This document shows positions 6,253 to 50,718 of a DNA stretch of 64,000 bases, in pieces. A program made the position numbers and the translations under genes. The DNA is from Patescibacteria group bacterium (GTDB lineage: Bacteria; Patescibacteriota; Minisyncoccia; Phycocordibacterales; JBHPGB01): assembly GCA_042571085.1 (NCBI GenBank), contig JBHPGB010000001.1:3190-67189 (forward strand), read 5' to 3'. The notes beneath the pieces are model-generated. The model made no database searches. It was not told the DNA's origin and saw only the letters and a program-made list of their open reading frames with translations. Numbering within the stretch: the stretch's first letter is position 1; the number at the start of each line of letters is the position of its first letter.

Positions 6253-6594
6253 ATGGCTACAAAAAAAACTACAAAAAAAGGAGATGAGACACCAAAATTG
6301 CGTATTCGCGTAGGTGCATATGAGCACAAAGTGCTTGATGCATCTGTAAAGCAGATCATTGATACTGCTATGCGCTTAGACGCACAAATTATTGGTCCAG
6401 TCCCTCTTCCTACAGAGAAAAAGAAATATACCGTCAACCGCTCTTCATTTGTCTACAAAGACGCGCGAGAGCAGTTTGAAATGAGGATTCATAAGCGATT
6501 GATTGATATTTTGAACCCTACTCCAAAGATTGTGGAGGCGTTGACTAACCTCAACCTCCCATCAGGAGTTAACGTGGATGTTAAGATGAGCTAA
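6253..6594 (+). CDS. rpsJ: Ribosomal protein S10
   Basis: 113 aa, canonical S10 sequence ([13 protein letters not shown]...). Confidence 0.95.
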
Positions 6595-6608
6595 TTATTT
6601 AAGCATTA

Positions 6609-6656
6609 CACACAAAACAAAAGCGTCGGCTTCGCCGACGCTTTTGTTTTGTGTGT
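6609..6656 (+). terminator. Very stable hairpin/terminator after rpsJ (22-bp perfect stem, UUCG tetraloop)
   Basis: CACACAAAACAAAAGCGTCGGC-ttcg-GCCGACGCTTTTGTTTTGTGTG. Confidence 0.7.
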
Positions 6657-6660
6657 AAAA

Positions 6661-6722
6661 ACTAATCGGCTCACTCGCAGTGAGTCGATTAATATGTTGA
6701 AGAATAAGGGTAAAAAAATCGC
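6661..6722 (+). repeat. Member of CGGCTCA-palindrome repeat family (variant copy)
   Basis: AATCGGCTCActcgcagTGAGtCGATTAATAtgTTGAAGAATAaGGGT; compare 34471-34532 and 36393-36454. Confidence 0.6.
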
Positions 6723-6766
6723 ACTGGAGTAAGTCGGCAGGGGTAAATTAAATTAGGTGTGGGGGC

Positions 6767-6795
6767 TTGCACCAATTCAGCTTATGGTGTAATAT
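6767..6795 (+). promoter_or_regulatory. Sigma70-like promoter candidate for rplC (S10 separated from L3 by terminator + promoter)
   Basis: TTGCAC (6767-6772), 17-nt spacer, TAATAT (6790-6795). Confidence 0.5.
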
Positions 6796-6867
6796 GGTGG
6801 ACATTAAACAAGCGAATGGCTTACGTGAACAGATACGAAGCCAGTACGCTGTCTTTATTTTTGTACT

Positions 6868-7479
6868 ATGAAAAAGTTTATCTTAGGAACAAAAGAAGAA
6901 ATGACACAAATTTTTACCGAAGACGGTAAAGTTATTCCTGCTACAGTAGTAAATGCTGGGCCGGTTAAAGTTACTCAGGTAAAAAGCACTGACGGAAAAG
7001 ACGGATACGAAGCAGTACAGGTTGGATTTGGTTCAAAGAAAGAAAAGAGTATAAATAAGGCCGAAAGAGGTCATATGGGAAATGATGATAATTTCAGCGA
7101 TTTAGTAGAGTTTCGTACTGAAGGGTCAGAACTTAAGAAAGGAGACGAAATCACAGCTGACATTTTTGAAGAAGGAGATGACGTACAAGTAAGCGGAATC
7201 AGTAAGGGTAAAGGTTTCCAAGGTGTTGTTAAGCGTCATGGATTTCACGGAGGACCACGAAGTCACGGTCAGAAGCACTCAGAGCGTGAGCCAGGATCAA
7301 TTGGTGCTACGGGACCGCAAAGAGTATTCAAAGGTAAACGAATGGGCGGCAGAATGGGATCAGACAGAGTTACTGTTAAAGGATTGAAGATTGTGGGAGT
7401 AGATAAAGAAAATAATAAGCTTTTGATATCAGGAGCTGTACCAGGAAAGCGTGGAACACTACTTGAAATTCGCGGATAA
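6868..7479 (+). CDS. rplC: Ribosomal protein L3
   Basis: 203 aa; L3 signature around GKGFQGVVKRHGF. Confidence 0.95.
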   Translation: MKKFILGTKEEMTQIFTEDGKVIPATVVNAGPVKVTQVKSTDGKDGYEAVQVGFGSKKEKSINKAERGHMGNDDNFSDLVEFRTEGSELKKGDEITADIFEEGDDVQVSGISKGKGFQGVVKRHGFHGGPRSHGQKHSEREPGSIGATGPQRVFKGKRMGGRMGSDRVTVKGLKIVGVDKENNKLLISGAVPGKRGTLLEIRG

Positions 7480-7504
7480 TAAATTTCAAAAAATATAAAA
7501 CATT

Positions 7505-8167
7505 ATGAATAGCAAAGTATACAACCAAACAGGAAAAGAAGCAGGCAAGATTGATTTGCCAGAAGCTGTTTTCGGTTTGCCTGAAAATATGGACTTGATT
7601 CATCAGGTTGTTATTTCTATGCAAAGTAATGCTCGAACAAATGTTGCACATGCTAAAGACAGAAGTGAAGTACGTGGTGGTGGTAAAAAGCCTTGGAAAC
7701 AAAAAGGTACAGGACGAGCACGACACGGATCAAGCCGCTCACCAATTTGGGTTGGTGGTGGTGTAACACACGGACCAACAAACGAGAGAAACTACACAAA
7801 GAAAATCAACAAGAAAATGAAAACAAAAGCTTTGTTTACAGCGCTTTCAGGAAAATTGAATGACAATGAAATTCTTTTTGTAGACTCACTTGATTTTACA
7901 GAAGCAAAAACAGCAAAAGCTAGCGAAATATTTAAGGCACTAGCTGGCATTAAAGGATATGAAGCGCTTGGAGAAAAGAAGCAAAACACAGCTCTTATCA
8001 CAACACTTTCAAAAGACGAAAATGTATACAAGAGTTTTGGTAATTTCGGAAACATTGCAATTGAAGAGGTGAGAAACTTGAATCCGGTAGATGTACTTAC
8101 ATACAAGTATTTGATAGTAGTTAATCCAGAAGAAAGTGTTAAATTTTTGGAAACTAAATTAGCATAA
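7505..8167 (+). CDS. rplD: Ribosomal protein L4
   Basis: 220 aa; RGGGKKPWKQKGTGRAR motif. Confidence 0.95.
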   Translation: MNSKVYNQTGKEAGKIDLPEAVFGLPENMDLIHQVVISMQSNARTNVAHAKDRSEVRGGGKKPWKQKGTGRARHGSSRSPIWVGGGVTHGPTNERNYTKKINKKMKTKALFTALSGKLNDNEILFVDSLDFTEAKTAKASEIFKALAGIKGYEALGEKKQNTALITTLSKDENVYKSFGNFGNIAIEEVRNLNPVDVLTYKYLIVVNPEESVKFLETKLA

Positions 8168-9701: not shown

Positions 9702-10475
9702 TTATTCAAGTGAGAATTCGTTCTTTATTACATGGCCACAATGCTTGCAGTGCGAAGCGTCTAGTTCGTGTCTACGTAGCCCACAATCTGGGCATTCATA
9801 TTGAATACGTGGGCGACGAAAAATACTTTGTGCAAGTCTAATAAATAAAGTAACGCCGAAAATCATAATGATAATGGAAAGCATTTTACCTGCGGTTCCA
9901 ACGGCTATAATATCCCCAAAACCGGTCGTGGTGAGTGTTGTGATGGTGAAATAGAGAGCATCAAGGTGGTTACCTATATTTGCATTGATTGAGGATTGAG
10001 AAACAAATACGATTACTGTCATTACAAAAAGGAATACAAAGAAGTTTAAAATTCCAACGATTATATTTCTATTGCGCGCGATTGCACCATTTTCTTTCTC
10101 TAGATAATCAAGTGCGCGGTATGTTCTGAAGATACGCAATGTCCTTATTACTCGAAGGATTGCAAGATTGCCGACAAGTGCAGGCATCAGAAGTGACACT
10201 ATTACAATAAAATCAGTAATCGCTAGCAGGCTAAATGCATAATTAAGCTTTTTAGGTGCAAGCCATAATCTACCGATGTACTCAAAGGTAAATATTATTG
10301 CAAAGATGATTTCAACAGCATGTACCACCGAATGCTCAGGATATACGGCCTCAATTGCGAATAGGGAAAATAGTAAAATATCTATTAAAAACAACGTTTT
10401 ATTGAATATAACACTGGTGTGTTTCTTCCCATAAAAAAGTGTCCGCAATTTCCTTTTAAATTTCCTGATAGTCAT
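9702..10475 (-). CDS. Voltage-gated K+ channel-like protein (S4 sensor + TTGFGD filter) with C-terminal CxxC-CxxC zinc ribbon
   Basis: LRVIRTLRIFRTYR (Arg every third residue), selectivity filter TTTGFGDI, C-terminal CPDCG...CKHCG. Confidence 0.75.
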   Translation of the reverse strand: MTIRKFKRKLRTLFYGKKHTSVIFNKTLFLIDILLFSLFAIEAVYPEHSVVHAVEIIFAIIFTFEYIGRLWLAPKKLNYAFSLLAITDFIVIVSLLMPALVGNLAILRVIRTLRIFRTYRALDYLEKENGAIARNRNIIVGILNFFVFLFVMTVIVFVSQSSINANIGNHLDALYFTITTLTTTGFGDIIAVGTAGKMLSIIIMIFGVTLFIRLAQSIFRRPRIQYECPDCGLRRHELDASHCKHCGHVIKNEFSLE

Positions 10476-10954
10476 TACATATATTGTACTTTGAATCTCA
10501 GATGTTTCAACTGGTAATTTGACTTAGTGTATCATTGCTGTTAATCTGTGCGAGGAGTTTGAGCTGTTCTTGTTAATTTATGAGGAGAAATTATATGGCT
10601 GAAAACGGTGTAATGCCCACAGCAGCATCTTTATTTCCGACGGAATGGAATTCCGACGGGTGTGAACACCAAAGTGTGATTCTCACAGCTTTGAACATAT
10701 CATGTCCGGAAGATGCTGGTGTTGCTTCCGTGCAGATCGATGACCTTGAACCGTTTGTTCCTGTGAAAGGTAAATACTGGAGTCTCGCTTTTGCGCGATT
10801 TGTTGCAGGTTGTTTCGACTCTGCTTTTCGCGGTGTCACGAGCTCTTCATATGCATATAGCATTAATGATGAAATGAAGGAGCTTTGTTGGGCATGCTTT
10901 GGTTTGCCTGAGGATCATGGTGGTTTTTACACAGCATTTCTTAACGGCAGTACA

Positions 10955-11815
10955 ATGCAAATTAGCTACATATCAACAGGAGAAATTGAAGTGAATGAAA
11001 ACATACAGAAAATCATCGAAGAAGCTTTTGAGCAGCGGGCAGAGATTAATCATAAGAATGCCTGTAGTACCCTTCGGCAGGCTGTTGCTATTGCTATAGA
11101 GGGATTGGATGACGGATCTGTTCGTGTTGCTGAGAAAATTGACGGCGACTGGGTCGTCAACGACTGGGTCAAGAAGGCGGTGTTGCTTTCGTTCAGGATT
11201 AACGATAATGAGCCAATATTAGGCGGTTTCACCAACTATTATGACAAAGTGCCGTCCAAGTATGCCGGTGCCAGCGACAGGCGCCTACGCGATGATGGTG
11301 TGCGCATAGTACCCCCAGCTGTCGTTCGCAAGGGCAGCCACATTGCTTCAGGTGTTGTACTCATGCCGAGCTACGTGAACATCGGCGCCTATGTGGACAG
11401 CGGCACTATGGTGGACACCTGGGCCACGGTCGGCTCCTGTGCTCAGATCGGTAAGAATTGCCACATTTCTGGCGGTGCTGGAATCGGTGGTGTATTGGAG
11501 CCATTACAAGCCAACCCAACCATCATCGAAGATAACTGCTTCATTGGAGCTCGTTCCGAGATCGTGGAAGGGGTGATTGTTGAAGAAGGTTCAGTGATTT
11601 CCATGGGCGTCTTCATCGGTCAGAGCACCAAGATCTACAATCGCGAAACCGGTGAGATCAGCTATGGCCGCGTACCTGCTGGTTCTGTGGTGGTTGCTGG
11701 TTCTTTACCATCAGCTGATGGTAGCTATAGCCTCAACTGTGCAATCATCGTCAAACAGGTGGACGAGAAAACACGTGGCAAGGTTAGCATCAACGAACTG
11801 CTGCGCGAGGCCTAG
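10955..11815 (+). CDS. dapD: Tetrahydrodipicolinate N-succinyltransferase (gammaproteobacterial type); annotated from internal Met, ORF open to 10580
   Basis: Very high similarity recalled to E. coli DapD across 270 aa (e.g. [80 protein letters not shown]); local GC clearly above flanks. Confidence 0.85.
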
Positions 11816-40250: not shown

Positions 40251-40520
40251 ATGGAAACAAAATCAAAAATAAAGGAAATAATTGTATACTCAACACCACC
40301 ATGTCCATATTGCAAAATGGCAAAACAATTACTTTCAGAAAAAGGAATTGAATATAGCGAAGTGGATGTTTCAACACAAGATGGTCTTAAGGCAATGCAG
40401 ACAAAAGGAGATTTCAGAACAGTGCCTCAAATATTCATAGGCGAAGAGCATATTGGTGGATATGATGAATTGTCAAAATTGAATAATGAAGGAAGGTTAG
40501 ACGACATGCTGAAAGAATAA
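40251..40520 (+). CDS. Glutaredoxin/NrdH-like thioredoxin-fold protein
   Basis: CPYC active site, 89 aa. Confidence 0.85.
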   Translation: METKSKIKEIIVYSTPPCPYCKMAKQLLSEKGIEYSEVDVSTQDGLKAMQTKGDFRTVPQIFIGEEHIGGYDELSKLNNEGRLDDMLKE

Positions 40521-44231: not shown

Positions 44232-44295
44232 ATTATTTGAAAACAACCACGCGGAAGCGTGGTTGTTTTTTTGTTTGTGGACTGGAATATACAAT

Positions 44296-44994
44296 TTAAT
44301 ATTCCTCAGTAGTATTTAGAAAATATTCAGCAAAAAAATGATTTTTTGATTTTGAAAGCAATTTGATTATTTGTGCAACACCAGGCATAAGTTTTCTTTG
44401 CTTCATATCATTTGTACTCATCCATGAACAAGTTCCTATAGATGAATCTTCTATAAATTTTCCAACAATATTTTTTCCTACAAAAATATGACAGAGCATG
44501 TGTGTGATTAATTTTTCCTCATCGCTAATATGTAAATAGATATCTCCTCTATGTTTCAAGACCCCTGTTAAACCAACTTTTTCTTTTAATTCACGCCCTG
44601 CGCTTTCTTGTATTCTCTCTTCAAGATGAATTTTTCCATAGGGGAATCCGAACTGGTTAATCAGAGGTTGACGCTTTCTCTTGTAGATAAGATACTCACC
44701 TTTTTTGTTTGTTAAGACTAAAAGGGTCACGATTTTTGGCTGAATGCGCTCGTCAAAGCTTTTCAGAGTCACCCTGTCTACATATTGTTTACCTTTTGCA
44801 GATAGAACATACGCGCCTGTTTGTTTAGAAATGTAGCCACTGGAAATTATCTTTTTCAGGTGATACATGAACATATTTCCTTCAACCGATTTTGGTTTCA
44901 GGTCTCTATATCTTGCTTTTCCGAGTAATGTGAGTTTTTTCAATATGTGTTTTTGTAAATCGTGCATAGTAGTTAGAGTATACGTAAAACTCAA
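44296..44994 (-). CDS. Winged-HTH plus Nudix-domain protein (regulator-like; Nudix box with E-to-K substitution)
   Basis: N-terminal wHTH; Nudix box GKIHLEERIQESAGRELKEKVGL. Confidence 0.7.
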   Translation of the reverse strand: MSFTYTLTTMHDLQKHILKKLTLLGKARYRDLKPKSVEGNMFMYHLKKIISSGYISKQTGAYVLSAKGKQYVDRVTLKSFDERIQPKIVTLLVLTNKKGEYLIYKRKRQPLINQFGFPYGKIHLEERIQESAGRELKEKVGLTGVLKHRGDIYLHISDEEKLITHMLCHIFVGKNIVGKFIEDSSIGTCSWMSTNDMKQRKLMPGVAQIIKLLSKSKNHFFAEYFLNTTEEY

Positions 44995-45077
44995 TTTGAG
45001 TCAATTTTTTTTGACTAGACTCCATATAAGGTCGAGGGCTATCATGATTATGGGTGTTCTTTTCAAAAGCATAGGAG

Positions 45078-45959
45078 ATGATCATGACATGCATAGATCG
45101 TATTTATAGTGTATCCGCACTGGTCGGATCCGGAACCTGTAATGGGAAATGTGCCTTTTGCGCTGGTGAGTATTTGCGACCTCAGGCAGAAAATCCCGAT
45201 ACGGAAAAGTATTGGAAAAATTTTAAGTCTGCGATCAGGCTTTGTGCGAGATATGGCGGGTGGTCTTTATCGCTCACAAGTAGCGGTGAGCCGACTTGCG
45301 ATCCGAATGCGGTAACAAAAGCGCTTGAAGCTTATCAAGAGTGTGCGCAAGAAGGCGCCTACTTTCCTAATGTAAATTTGTTTACGAATGGAATTGAATT
45401 CGGTAGAGACAAATTTTGCGATAAATGGTTGCCAATTTGGAAGGGTCTTGGTCTGACAAATATTGCCGTCTCAATACACTCCACAAGTATTGAAAAGCAA
45501 GCTGAAGCTTATGGTCTACCAAAGTACCCAGAGTTTAACACCATATTCAACAATATTCGCAAACATGGTGTTGGGCTAAGGTGCACATTGTTGCTAAGAA
45601 AAGGAGAGGTGGATAATGCTGCTCGTTATAAAGAAGCTGTTCATCATTTGATAGAGCGACATGGTGTAGACAACATTACGTCTTGGCCCGTAGCTGAACC
45701 AGATGGTGTACGAAGTGAATTTACTCCATCACGGCTTGGTATGCTATCAATACGTAATTGGCTTAGGAAAAATACCATATTGTGCCACGGGCATTCGTGG
45801 GGTGGTGGAGTCTATGACTACAATGGCAACATTCTCAGACTGACCGACTATGTGACAAAACATAATCGACGAAAGGATTTTGTGAGGCAGCTCGTAGTGT
45901 TCCAGGATGGAACAGTTGCTTATTCGTGGATTAAAGAAGGTGCGTTGTGCATGAAGTAA
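45078..45959 (+). CDS. Radical SAM enzyme, paralog 1 (unassigned subfamily)
   Basis: CNGKCAFC (CX3CX2C), SSGEPT glycine-rich SAM motif, TNG ribose motif; 293 aa. Confidence 0.75.
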   Translation: MIMTCIDRIYSVSALVGSGTCNGKCAFCAGEYLRPQAENPDTEKYWKNFKSAIRLCARYGGWSLSLTSSGEPTCDPNAVTKALEAYQECAQEGAYFPNVNLFTNGIEFGRDKFCDKWLPIWKGLGLTNIAVSIHSTSIEKQAEAYGLPKYPEFNTIFNNIRKHGVGLRCTLLLRKGEVDNAARYKEAVHHLIERHGVDNITSWPVAEPDGVRSEFTPSRLGMLSIRNWLRKNTILCHGHSWGGGVYDYNGNILRLTDYVTKHNRRKDFVRQLVVFQDGTVAYSWIKEGALCMK

Positions 45960-46032
45960 CATATTCGGGCGGTGGATGTATTTATGTTCATCGCCCATTA
46001 TTGTTTATCCGACTACTTATATGAGGTGAGTT

Positions 46033-46833
46033 ATGGAAAATAGTCTTTCACTTTTTGTTGGTACAAGAAAATGCAATGCTCATTGTGGACACTGTGCTGG
46101 CAAGGTTCATCGTAGGCATGCTCCTACCAAAGATGGGATTGTGGATGAAGAGTTGGTAATTAAAACACTTAGAGACTGCTATGTCAGTGGAGCGCGACGC
46201 TTAACGATCAGCAGTAGTGGAGAACCAACACTGTCTCCAATTTCAGTGACTAAAGTATTTCAGATCATTGATAATATGCGAAGAAAGGAAGGTGTTGTAT
46301 ATTCGCCAATAAGTCTTTACTCAAATGGTATTAGGATTGGAGAAGACCAGTGTTTTTCTGAAGAATATCTTCCATTGTGGAAGGCACTTGGTTTGACTAA
46401 GGTTTATATAACAATCCATGATATCAACGAGCATGAAAATGCTAAGATTTATAGAATTGCAGAATATCCAAAATTGGTGACGATAATTGAGAGGATTCAC
46501 GATGCAGACTTGTTGATGAGAGCAAATCTTGTACTCAGTCGTAACACAACGTGTGAACTTGGGAAATTCATTTCAATTGTCAAACATTTGGAAGATATTG
46601 GCGCAGATAGTATTTCCGCGTGGCCAATTCGTGGGATTGACGATGAGGTTGATAAGGAAAGAGCTCCTATTGCTTCTGAGATGAATAAAATGAGTGAGTG
46701 GGCTTTGCAATATTCCAGACCAGGATTTGAATTGCGTGTGTTGGGGGAGGAGAATCGAATCGCATATCAATCAGGTCAGAAGTTAACATTATTTCCCGAC
46801 GGTAGTTTATCGGGGACATGGTGTAATAACTAA
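46033..46833 (+). CDS. Radical SAM enzyme, paralog 2
   Basis: CNAHCGHC, SSGEPT, SNG; 266 aa; same motif spacing as paralog 1. Confidence 0.75.
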   Translation: MENSLSLFVGTRKCNAHCGHCAGKVHRRHAPTKDGIVDEELVIKTLRDCYVSGARRLTISSSGEPTLSPISVTKVFQIIDNMRRKEGVVYSPISLYSNGIRIGEDQCFSEEYLPLWKALGLTKVYITIHDINEHENAKIYRIAEYPKLVTIIERIHDADLLMRANLVLSRNTTCELGKFISIVKHLEDIGADSISAWPIRGIDDEVDKERAPIASEMNKMSEWALQYSRPGFELRVLGEENRIAYQSGQKLTLFPDGSLSGTWCNN

Positions 46834-46894
46834 ACATAATCTATCTAAATGATATTCCGCCACGTCTGTGGCGGATTTTTTTTGTTTGTGGAGA

Positions 46895-46914
46895 TGGGGA
46901 GAATGTCCCGCAGT
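46895..46914 (-). repeat. Duplicate of the 3'-terminal 20 nt of the tmRNA gene (attachment-site-like direct repeat)
   Basis: TTTGTGGAGATGGGGAGAAT identical to 47137-47156. Confidence 0.6.
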
Positions 46915-47074: not shown

Positions 47075-47160
47075 TTCGATTCTCCCCATCTCTCACAAAC
47101 GCAAACGCCGCCAAAGCAATGCTTTGGCGGCGGCGTTTTGTGGAGATGGGGAGAATCGAA
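47075..47160. repeat. About 85-bp near-perfect palindrome built from inverted copies of the tmRNA T-arm/acceptor (TTCGATTCTCCCCATCTC) around an 11-bp GC hairpin
   Basis: Left arm 47075-47117, loop AAT, right arm 47121-47160; inner GCCGCCAAAGC/GCTTTGGCGGC. Confidence 0.65.
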
Positions 47161-47685
47161 CTCCCGTGCAAATAATGCTTCTGAATGAGTCTACAAAGGT
47201 TAGTACACTTTGGTTTGTTTAGAAGAGTGAGCTAAAAAGTGAACAAAATTTCTCACACCTCGATTCTCTATGTTTCGGTATTGTATCGAGAAATAATACT
47301 CTTTCCGATTAAATACTTCTTAAGAAAACCTCAGAATTTTAGACGAGACAAAGTAAAAAATATAAAGAATATCCTTAGATATTTTGAATATTTTTTGCAA
47401 AGTCGTAGTCAAAATTATGGTGTTTTCAAGGAGTAGTTAATCGGAAAGGGTATAAAACAAGACCTAGTCTGAAAAATATTACACTCAGATTTCACCTATC
47501 AAACTTTAGTGAACTGAACGCCGGCTTAGGCTAAAGCGTAAGCTGGAGAAGCAAAGTATGGGCTAACCATTGCTTTTGCTTTTTGTGACAAGTTTGCACT
47601 TATCGTGTGTAGCCTTTTGAATAGTTACTACAGCTATCCTTCGCACATGCAAAAGGGAAATCATCTGTCGATACCGATCACCCCC
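47141..47685 (-). ncRNA. ssrA: tmRNA (ssrA) candidate, unusually long (about 545 nt) with about 200-nt AT-rich insertion before the T-arm
   Basis: 5' GGGGGUGAUCGGUAUCGACAG (tmRNA 5' consensus), acceptor pairing GGGGGUG/CAUCUCC with G3-U wobble, tag ORF ending ...ASPAYALA-UAA, 3' GGGAG-UUCGAUU-CUCCC T-arm; adjacent to smpB. Confidence 0.6.
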
Positions 47686-47736: not shown

Positions 47737-48183
47737 CTAAAATTGCTTAATATCTCTAGCAACCTCTCTTTCAACGTCTCGTTTTTTAATGCTCTCGCGT
47801 TTGTCGTATTTCTTCTTTCCTTTAGCTATAGCCAGCTCAAGCTTTATCTTATTACCCTTAGTATAAACACTTATTGGCACTATTGTCAAGCCCTTCTGGC
47901 TTTCTGCTCCAGCAAGCTCTTTCAGTTCCTTCTTATTTAGCAAGAGTTTTCTGGTGCGTGCAGGGTCGTAGTCTTTCGGTGTATTTGCTGGCTGATATGG
48001 TGGAATTGTTGCCCCAACCAAAAATGCTTCATTTCCGCGTATAATCACGTGCGCACCTTCAAAAGAACCCTGATTATTCTTCAGACTTTTCACTTCAAAA
48101 CCGAGTAAAACCATACCGGCTTCAAATTTATCAAGCAGCTCATAATTGAAACGTGCTTTTTTGTTTTGTATCAATGTAGGCAT
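47737..48183 (-). CDS. smpB: SsrA-binding protein SmpB
   Basis: 148 aa; canonical SmpB (KARFNYELLDKFEAG...). Confidence 0.93.
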   Translation of the reverse strand: MPTLIQNKKARFNYELLDKFEAGMVLLGFEVKSLKNNQGSFEGAHVIIRGNEAFLVGATIPPYQPANTPKDYDPARTRKLLLNKKELKELAGAESQKGLTIVPISVYTKGNKIKLELAIAKGKKKYDKRESIKKRDVEREVARDIKQF

Positions 48184-50627: not shown

Positions 50628-50700
50628 GCGCGTATAGCTCAGTTGGTAGAGCGCAGAGCTTATACCTCTGTGGTCCTAGGTTCAAGTCCTAGTGCGCGCA
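50628..50700 (+). tRNA. tRNA with anticodon UAU (tRNA-Ile decoding AUA by anticodon; 73 nt, no encoded CCA)
   Basis: Cloverleaf: acceptor GCGCGTA/TGCGCGC, D-arm GCTC-AGTTGGTA-GAGC, anticodon stem CAGAG/CTCTG loop CTTATAC, T-arm CTAGG-TTCAAGT-CCTAG. Confidence 0.85.
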
Positions 50701-50718
50701 CTCATCATTTCATATAGA

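Follow-up and report, generated by a model that had tools for sequence, protein, structure and literature searches.

Viperin (RSAD2) and the pVips are single-domain radical S-adenosylmethionine (SAM) enzymes of about 260-290 amino acids (aa) that lack a SPASM domain, act on a nucleoside triphosphate (NTP) and are often encoded beside a nucleotide kinase. The GTP 3',8-cyclase MoaA abstracts the ribose 3'-hydrogen of an NTP. Ribonucleotide reductases (RNRs) are considered the sole de novo source of DNA building blocks, and their genes are repressed by NrdR, which senses dATP and ATP; NrtR uses a Nudix domain as its ligand sensor. Here we analyze a locus that resembles each of these systems in part. 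It lies in a stretch of 64,000 nucleotides (nt) of contig JBHPGB010000001.1 from a metagenome-assembled genome of a Patescibacteria group bacterium (assembly GCA_042571085.1), hereafter the window, where three open reading frames (ORFs) fill the interval 44296-46880: a gene for a regulator combining a winged helix-turn-helix (wHTH) with a Nudix domain on the reverse strand and, divergent from it, two radical-SAM genes on the forward strand, termed rSAM-A and rSAM-B. We tentatively propose a role for rSAM-A in deoxynucleotide supply.

The two radical-SAM proteins share with viperin its single-domain build, its size, the lack of a SPASM domain and the frequent proximity of a nucleotide kinase gene, but their identity to it is only 14-18%. 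Unlike viperin, the family has signatures of its own (CHGHxWGGGVYDY, VRQLVVFQDG and a C-terminal Cys), its genes are paired with an NrdR, TrmB-like or wHTH-Nudix regulator, and its viral copies lie beside DNA polymerases. MoaA provides the best NCBIfam match of rSAM-B, which nevertheless lacks the C-terminal auxiliary-cluster motif; there are no molybdopterin genes nearby, and the hosts have a minimal metabolism. With the RNR/NrdR regulon rSAM-A shares an NrdR regulator and NrdR-box-like operators in nine adjacent loci, and like RNRs it has spread horizontally across domains of life and is carried by viruses beside replication genes. Its proposed chemistry would start from a 5'-deoxyadenosyl radical, as in class II RNRs, or from radical SAM, as in the activation of class III enzymes. 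Unlike RNRs, however, it shows no relation in sequence or fold to their ten-stranded barrel and has ~290 aa as against 600-1000; the window locus, moreover, is without NrdR, and ribonucleotide reduction is here a proposal. The wHTH-Nudix protein resembles NrtR in its degenerate Nudix box, its winged helix and the palindromic operators beside the controlled genes. The domain order is nonetheless reversed, with the winged helix N-terminal rather than following the Nudix domain as in NrtR, and both the operator (TTGASTCAA) and the neighbors (AAA_28-CYTH or rSAM genes) are different.

Sequence and structure of rSAM-A and rSAM-B

The likely start of rSAM-A lies at position 45084 (45084-45959, + strand, 291 aa), slightly inside its longest ORF (45078-45959, +, 293 aa): the family consensus opens with MACIEK, and GGAG is found 6 nt 5' of this start. 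For rSAM-B (46033-46833, +, 266 aa), the encoded protein also appears, with the same sequence, at NCBI under assembly GCA_042577165.1 (contig JBHPEC010000006). Both match the Pfam Radical_SAM profile (PF04055), at 33.7 bits for rSAM-A and 45.3 bits for rSAM-B against a gathering score of 29.5, and they are related to each other at 32% identity (E 2e-38 with BLASTP; with hhalign, 266 columns aligned at probability 100, E 1.9e-54). The cluster motif CX3CX2C is present in both, as CNGKCAFCAG in rSAM-A and CNAHCGHCAG in rSAM-B, along with SSGEPT in each and TNG and SNG, respectively. An earlier, sequence-only reading of this DNA had seen here two tandem paralogous radical-SAM genes with CN..C..CAG, SSGEPT and (T/S)NG motifs, devoid of SPASM/twitch extensions and not assignable to a subfamily, and the searches bear this out on each count. 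Beyond Radical_SAM neither protein has a Pfam match, including any to SPASM/twitch at E <= 1; no NCBIfam model comes near its cutoff; and sequence searches of the PDB, whether started from a single protein or from a profile, gave no significant match. Judged by these comparisons, rSAM-A and rSAM-B are full-length paralogs of a radical-SAM family not assigned to any subfamily.

Several such subfamilies were considered individually and rejected. A SPASM/twitch enzyme is disfavored also by the C-terminus, which is a beta-hairpin domain. QueE gave no family hidden Markov model (HMM) match, and neither did RlmN/Cfr-type or other modification families in NCBIfam; for the glycyl-radical activases NrdG and PflA no NCBIfam model appeared at E <= 1. 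The MoaA model TIGR02666 scored 15.3 (rSAM-A) and 35.8 bits (rSAM-B) against a cutoff of 284; the non-cluster cysteines of rSAM-A are not in the arrangement of the MoaA auxiliary [4Fe-4S] cluster, and rSAM-B has a single conserved C-terminal Cys. The viperin model NF038283, which like MoaA gave its best score with rSAM-B, reached 15.9 (rSAM-A) and 26.3 bits (rSAM-B) against 180, and the PADLOC pVip models 11-24 bits.

A characteristic feature of rSAM-A is the sequence CHGHSWGGGVYDY, in which the CHGHxWGGGVYDY signature sits on a 14-residue hairpin that rSAM-B lacks. Outside the cluster motif, rSAM-A has four invariant cysteines (C5, C89, C236 and C291 in the 293-aa numbering) and one that is near-invariant (C74); C5 and C291 lie in the flexible termini. 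AlphaFold models (predicted local distance difference test scores of 81.7 for rSAM-A and 90.1 for rSAM-B) display the partial TIM-barrel common to solved radical-SAM members, with the C-terminal region forming the conserved beta-hairpin domain. The modeled folds of both proteins are nearest to viperin and MoaA, at 12-18% sequence identity to the top structural matches, and a search of the BFVD viral structures returned generic radical-SAM folds alone, with template-modeling scores of 0.5-0.67.

Phyletic distribution and conservation

The family is rare and at the same time strongly conserved. When 1.84 billion cluster representatives were searched with a profile, only 38 matches fell below 1e-30, and at 50% identity the rSAM-A type proper is reduced to about four clusters; more distant full-length proteins of ~290 aa make up a further group, at E 1e-22 to 1e-33. 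In a pattern-limited scan of 185,579 species representatives, one genome per species, we found 58 rSAM-A loci, all of them in Patescibacteria (Paceibacterota, Moraniibacteriota, Collierbacteria and Dojkabacteria) or in DPANN-type archaeal genomes, some of the latter with evidently wrong bin labels. In IMG/VR, rSAM-A is present on 12 viral contigs, of which four have rSAM-B as well, and tblastn against the cultured phage genomes of INPHARED detected no homolog. As far as these sequence searches reach, the family is limited to ultra-small prokaryotes (Patescibacteria and DPANN archaea) and viruses. Identity of rSAM-A is 63-78% across Patescibacteria, DPANN archaea and viral contigs; for 44 relatives from bacteria of the candidate phyla radiation (CPR) and from DPANN archaea the range is 67-78% and column identity averages 76%, and the relatives of rSAM-B are 53-63% identical. 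The conservation of the rSAM-A sequence is of a degree typical of core nucleotide enzymes, which counts in favor of the role proposed here.

A few less typical occurrences deserve mention. A contig labelled as a Pseudomonadota metagenome-assembled genome (L040:29-7935) is a Mu-like phage carrying rSAM-A, directly after which come a portal gene and a gene for a 746-aa fusion of a Mu-like prophage protease with Nudix. In one virus a third, more divergent radical-SAM gene (273 aa; L068:6818-7639) lies directly upstream of rSAM-A/rSAM-B. On a phage-like contig (L084:1-12882) the stop of a distant rSAM-A relative (P0397) overlaps the start of an adenylosuccinate-synthetase-like gene of the PurA/PurZ type, near genes for IMPDH, a QRPTase_N (NAMPT-like) protein, a Macro domain and the anti-Pycsar protein Apyc1.

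Gene neighborhoods in bacteria, archaea and viruses

To survey gene context, ORFs were called in all loci and then clustered by BLAST. An NrdR cluster occurs in 10 rSAM-A loci and adjoins rSAM-A in nine of them, divergently in eight and on the same strand in L045; in the tenth (L022, with a Parvarchaeota label) its place is two genes upstream. The Zn-ribbon-NrdR and ATP-cone domains were verified with Pfam in one member (L011), the others being assigned by BLAST cluster, and the remaining NrdR loci include ones labelled Paceibacterota, Moraniibacteriota, Dojkabacteria and Collierbacteria. Given that the flanking genes vary among the loci (gatAB, dnaKJ, nusA, trmD), the nrdR/rSAM-A pair itself is the conserved unit. 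The NrdR-box consensus is acaCwAtATaTwGtgt. A first strict scan of the bare intergenic regions between nrdR and rSAM-A found boxes in only three loci; when widened by 20 nt into the coding starts, it yielded 15 NrdR-box-like palindromes versus 2.4 expected (Poisson P 5e-8). In three loci the boxes form pairs 42 bp apart.

CPR bacteria usually have rSAM-A without rSAM-B. In the DPANN archaea one layout recurs, with a divergent HTH gene followed by genes for an AAA_28 kinase, a CYTH protein, an unknown 170-aa protein, rSAM-A and rSAM-B, and a convergent Metallophos gene; synteny of this operon with topA and with genes for aminoacyl-tRNA synthetases is stable. Across the survey, the AAA_28 P-loop kinase was found in 16 loci, the CYTH triphosphate-tunnel protein in 12, and the divergent ~279-aa protein, whose N-terminal HTH has only a weak HTH_11 match, in 34. 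Six DPANN loci (L015, L018, L019, L023, L049 and L063) have the motif TACAAC(T/A)CT-N4-GACA-N6-8-TGT(A/G)CAG upstream of rSAM-A, with a second TACAACTCT downstream; located in the region that separates the divergent HTH gene from rSAM-A (or from the kinase gene), it is probably the operator of this archaeal regulator. The operon partners of rSAM-A, namely AAA_28 and AAA_33 kinases, CYTH, Metallophos and HD proteins, handle nucleotide phosphates, and on the evidence of gene context rSAM-A is linked both to nucleotide-sensing repressors and to nucleotide-phosphate enzymes. Recurrent neighbor clusters 6 and 9-15 were set aside as unrelated housekeeping genes (topoisomerase, tRNA synthetases, a Lon-like protease, 2-hydroxyacid dehydrogenase, an ABC exporter, patatin and eRF1).

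Viral copies of rSAM-A neighbor genes for DNA polymerases (family B, family A and PolIII-alpha) and an SNF2 helicase. In one virus (L077:6331-11417) the family B polymerase gene is split at Pfam profile position 146 into an N-terminal part (6331-8004) and a C-terminal part (10311-11417), and the gap holds rSAM-A, rSAM-B and an unannotated 222-aa ORF; judging from this arrangement, the cassette acts like a mobile insertion in polB. In another (L072), rSAM-A/rSAM-B are followed by genes for an AAA_33 kinase and TnpB.

The wHTH-Nudix regulator and its predicted operator

The regulator gene of the window (44296-44967, - strand, 223 aa) begins at M10 of the longest ORF (44296-44994, -, 232 aa), in keeping with the family consensus and the NCBI annotation. 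The protein comprises a wHTH (residues 1-75), which has weak winged-helix matches and corresponds to PF14947 and PF24038 in homologs, and a Nudix domain (~80-215) recognized by Pfam (PF00293, 37.4 bits versus a cutoff of 21.1, residues 89-211). Its Nudix box, GKIHLEERIQESAGRELKEKVGL, departs from the intact hydrolase pattern GX5EX7REUXEEXGU in that the second Glu of the EE pair is a Lys (RELKEK for REUXEE); as this Lys is invariant in 40 relatives, it is a family trait rather than a local mutation. The substitution had been spotted in the sequence-only reading, which suggested a nucleotide-sensing regulator, and the invariance of the Lys along with a recurrent upstream palindrome agrees with a predicted sensor rather than a hydrolase.

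This palindrome, TTGASTCAA, is found upstream of 66 of 74 members of the wHTH-Nudix family. It occurs once in the window, at 44996-45004 in the shared divergent promoter region, ~80 nt upstream of rSAM-A, where TTGAGTCAA together with the half-site TTGACT (45012-45017) gives the arrangement AGTCAA-N7-TTGACT and makes up the probable operator (44996-45017). The -35 element of a sigma-70-like promoter of the regulator gene (44977-45004, - strand; TTGACT-16-TATACT, 10/12 matches) overlaps it. A weaker promoter-like site precedes rSAM-A (45016-45045, +; TAGACT-18-TATCAT, 9/12), and is a consensus match only, such sites being about as frequent in this region as in shuffled sequence. The overlap of the operator with the -35 element in a shared promoter region and its recurrence upstream of family members support the prediction that the regulator binds DNA and controls both its own gene and the divergent rSAM operon.

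The wHTH-Nudix family is widespread in Patescibacteria, and with its TTGASTCAA operator it constitutes a previously undescribed class of regulators. None of 77 other loci of the family has rSAM genes. The commonest neighbor in these loci (11 of 77) is an AAA_28-CYTH fusion, the AAA_28 part of which is confirmed by Pfam; both of its functions are also encoded ahead of rSAM-A/B in the DPANN archaea. Because of this correspondence, the three regulators (NrdR, the wHTH-Nudix protein and the HTH protein of the archaea) are, as read from gene context, interchangeable dedicated regulators of a network of kinase, CYTH and rSAM-A/B proteins.

Predicted function and alternative explanations

Given that NrdR represses RNR genes, and that rSAM-A occupies the position in viruses that usually belongs to RNR and other deoxynucleotide-supply genes, we favor a role in deoxynucleotide supply. 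Specifically, rSAM-A could be a nucleotide-regulated enzyme that acts on the ribose of an NTP and feeds the deoxynucleotide pool, a tentative reading to which we accord appreciably less than an even chance; both substrate and destination are what we infer from the above associations. In such a scheme the regulator would bind TTGASTCAA and repress its own gene and the rSAM operon, with a nucleotide held unhydrolysed in the Nudix pocket setting the level of repression, analogous to the ATP-cone of NrdR. rSAM-A would reductively cleave SAM at the [4Fe-4S] cluster bound by CX3CX2C, and the resulting 5'-deoxyadenosyl radical would take a ribose hydrogen (3' or 4') from the NTP. In the most direct version the 2'-hydroxyl would then be lost and the product reduced, as in an RNR reaction without an RNR. 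Candidate hydrogen or electron donors, speculatively, are C89, the C236-H237-G-H239 segment and the tail cysteines C5 and C291; since the latter two are invariant in flexible termini, they could deliver reducing equivalents. rSAM-B may be an optional partner that handles a second substrate class or serves as a heteromer subunit, many relatives having rSAM-A alone. A bolder version, in which rSAM-A is a stand-alone radical-SAM ribonucleotide reductase of ~290 residues, representing a fourth, evolutionarily unrelated route to deoxyribonucleotides that would serve genome-reduced Patescibacteria, DPANN archaea and the viruses of both under the control of NrdR or of analogous nucleotide-sensing repressors, with rSAM-B as specificity or partner subunit, we consider doubtful.

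Were the RNR-substitute version true, it would be categorically new, and a small NrdR-controlled radical-SAM enzyme that moves among bacteria, archaea and viruses is a testable candidate for such an alternative route. Minimally, it would mean an unknown step in deoxynucleotide supply; otherwise a radical-SAM enzyme with a ligand-sensing repressor is a known type of arrangement. Whatever the chemistry, the module is portable and can be directly expressed and assayed.

Several observations weigh against a deoxynucleotide role. The window has neither an NrdR gene nor an NrdR box scoring at least 16, and the boxes in relatives could serve nrdR autoregulation alone. It contains no canonical RNR genes, which is uninformative for the genome as a whole. 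The rarity of the family (58 of 185,579 species) and its ties to mobile elements (the split polB, TnpB and the tmRNA island described below) would fit conflict genes too. An NAD or ADP-ribose theme is possible in view of the AAA_28/NadR fold and an NMNAT-like neighbor. The literature searched holds no description of the rSAM-A/rSAM-B family, and the argument draws on sequence and gene context.

The NAD theme leads to the strongest of the alternatives, which we nonetheless regard as rather unlikely: that the enzymes perform another step of nucleotide or cofactor salvage, such as nicotinamide riboside, NAD or ADP-ribose chemistry with the wHTH-Nudix protein acting like NrtR, or else folate-independent thymidylate formation or synthesis of a precursor for DNA-base hypermodification. 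AAA_28 is also the fold of the NadR ribosylnicotinamide kinase, and one AAA_28 protein gave a weak nadR_NMN_Atrans match; a CTP_transf_like (NMNAT-like) gene neighbors one wHTH-Nudix locus, NADAR adjoins rSAM-A in viral locus L071, the regulator, like NrtR, pairs a wHTH with a degenerate Nudix domain, and phage radical-SAM enzymes such as QueE often serve base modification. Yet NrdR is tied to deoxynucleotide synthesis rather than to NAD, the modification families are those already rejected with NCBIfam, and among the 58 genome loci and 12 viral loci no NAD-pathway gene is conserved next to rSAM-A.

The antiviral, viperin-like system raised by the sequence-only reading fares less well. It would be a conflict system in which the kinase makes an NTP that rSAM-A/B turn into a 3'-deoxy-3',4'-didehydro chain terminator or similar poison; the product would block the polymerase of a competitor, and the Nudix, CYTH and phosphoesterase proteins would sense or detoxify it. 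The weak pVip matches, a nucleotide kinase neighbor that recalls the CMPK2-viperin pairing, a mobile cassette, a rare and patchy family present in viruses, and the distant relative whose phage island also holds genes for Apyc1, Macro and NAMPT-like proteins would all suit such a system. However, the best viperin score misses its cutoff widely (26 versus 180 bits), the column identity of rSAM-A is beyond what is usual for defense genes, NrdR and NrdR boxes accompany it in other Patescibacteria, the DPANN operon is held in stable synteny, and the viral copies adjoin or sit inside the viruses' own DNA polymerase genes. The NrdR pairing points instead to deoxynucleotide supply; a viperin-like defense role is less likely than this, and in our estimate improbable. 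Nor could the enzymes be placed in any housekeeping cofactor pathway showing conserved synteny. Finally, that rSAM-A is an NrdG-like activase, installing a glycyl radical on a class III RNR or another glycyl-radical enzyme encoded elsewhere, is very improbable despite the NrdR linkage and a JGI label of 'organic radical activating enzyme' on one distant relative, in view of the missing NrdG and PflA matches, a size above that of typical activases with a conserved C-terminal beta domain, a conservation that activases do not normally reach, operon partners that are kinases and phosphohydrolases, and the lack of any glycyl-radical enzyme in the recurrent neighbor clusters or among ~50 neighbors scanned with Pfam/NCBIfam in the 58 genome and 12 viral loci.

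Mobility of the cassette and the adjacent ssrA locus

The cassette lies at the 3' end of the tmRNA gene ssrA (47138-47685, - strand), which Rfam finds at full length with its 3' end toward the cassette; smpB (47737-48183, -) lies beyond it. The last 20 nt of the tmRNA (47137-47156) recur exactly at 46885-46904, with zero such matches in shuffles. An exact 16-nt direct repeat, TTTTTTTGTTTGTGGA, which contains 8 nt of the tmRNA 3' end, is found at 44266-44281, following the terminator hairpin of an upstream response-regulator gene, and again at 46877-46892, where it overlaps the 20-nt copy (46877-46904 in all). The 16-nt pair encloses exactly the three genes and their terminator, although half of this repeat is a T-run that is also part of terminators. 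The earlier suggestion of acquisition beside ssrA fits these repeats well. Like ssrA-targeted islands, the cassette sits at the 3' end of ssrA between direct repeats containing the tmRNA 3' end, and like tandem islands of this kind it has a second, 232-bp remnant beside it, flanked by the 20-nt repeat. Unlike them it measures only 2.6 kb, and no integrase is encoded in or beside the block, the three cassette genes alone lying between the repeats. By their sequence and placement the repeats fit the pattern expected for tandem islands at the ssrA 3' end, and we take the three genes as a cassette acquired by horizontal transfer. The GC content of the cassette (0.40-0.43 versus 0.33-0.38 in the immediate flanks) was rejected as a sign of foreign origin, as these values are matched by other native genes, ftsH among them. 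The ssrA scars, the split polB and the viral TnpB neighbor together indicate, at the level of gene arrangement, that the rSAM module is mobile. In another Patescibacteria genome (L082:2301-5654) smpB/tmRNA is closely followed on its downstream side by a wHTH-Nudix gene and its divergent partner, an unannotated gene of 232 aa, and wHTH-Nudix cassettes may recurrently occupy the ssrA site with different cargo.

Within the cassette, the rSAM operon ends in an intrinsic terminator (46856-46883, +) composed of an 8-bp GC-rich stem followed by T8. A hairpin of 13 pairs with a T-poor tail lies between rSAM-A and rSAM-B (45967-45996, +) and might act in RNA processing or as a partial terminator. Between the cassette and ssrA, an inverted and degenerate copy of the tmRNA 3' end (47075-47109) forms an inverted repeat with the true 3' end; the resulting hairpin (47075-47160), with 35-nt arms that are 80% complementary and a GC-rich 12-bp core at 47106-47132, may be a bidirectional terminator, and it attracts spurious microRNA matches in Rfam. 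The tmRNA gene itself is 548 nt long and, in the Rfam alignment, has a 156-nt insertion in one pseudoknot arm, holding an inverted repeat with 35-nt arms (47296-47330/47419-47453), and ~30 extra nt after the tag region; ARAGORN failed to detect it.

Two further genes of the window may be noted. At 40251-40520 (+), 4.5 kb upstream of the cassette, is a glutaredoxin-like ORF of 89 aa containing the motif CPYC; glutaredoxins are the classic hydrogen donors of ribonucleotide reductases. Further downstream, a tRNA-Ile gene (50628-50701, +) has a genomically encoded TAT anticodon.

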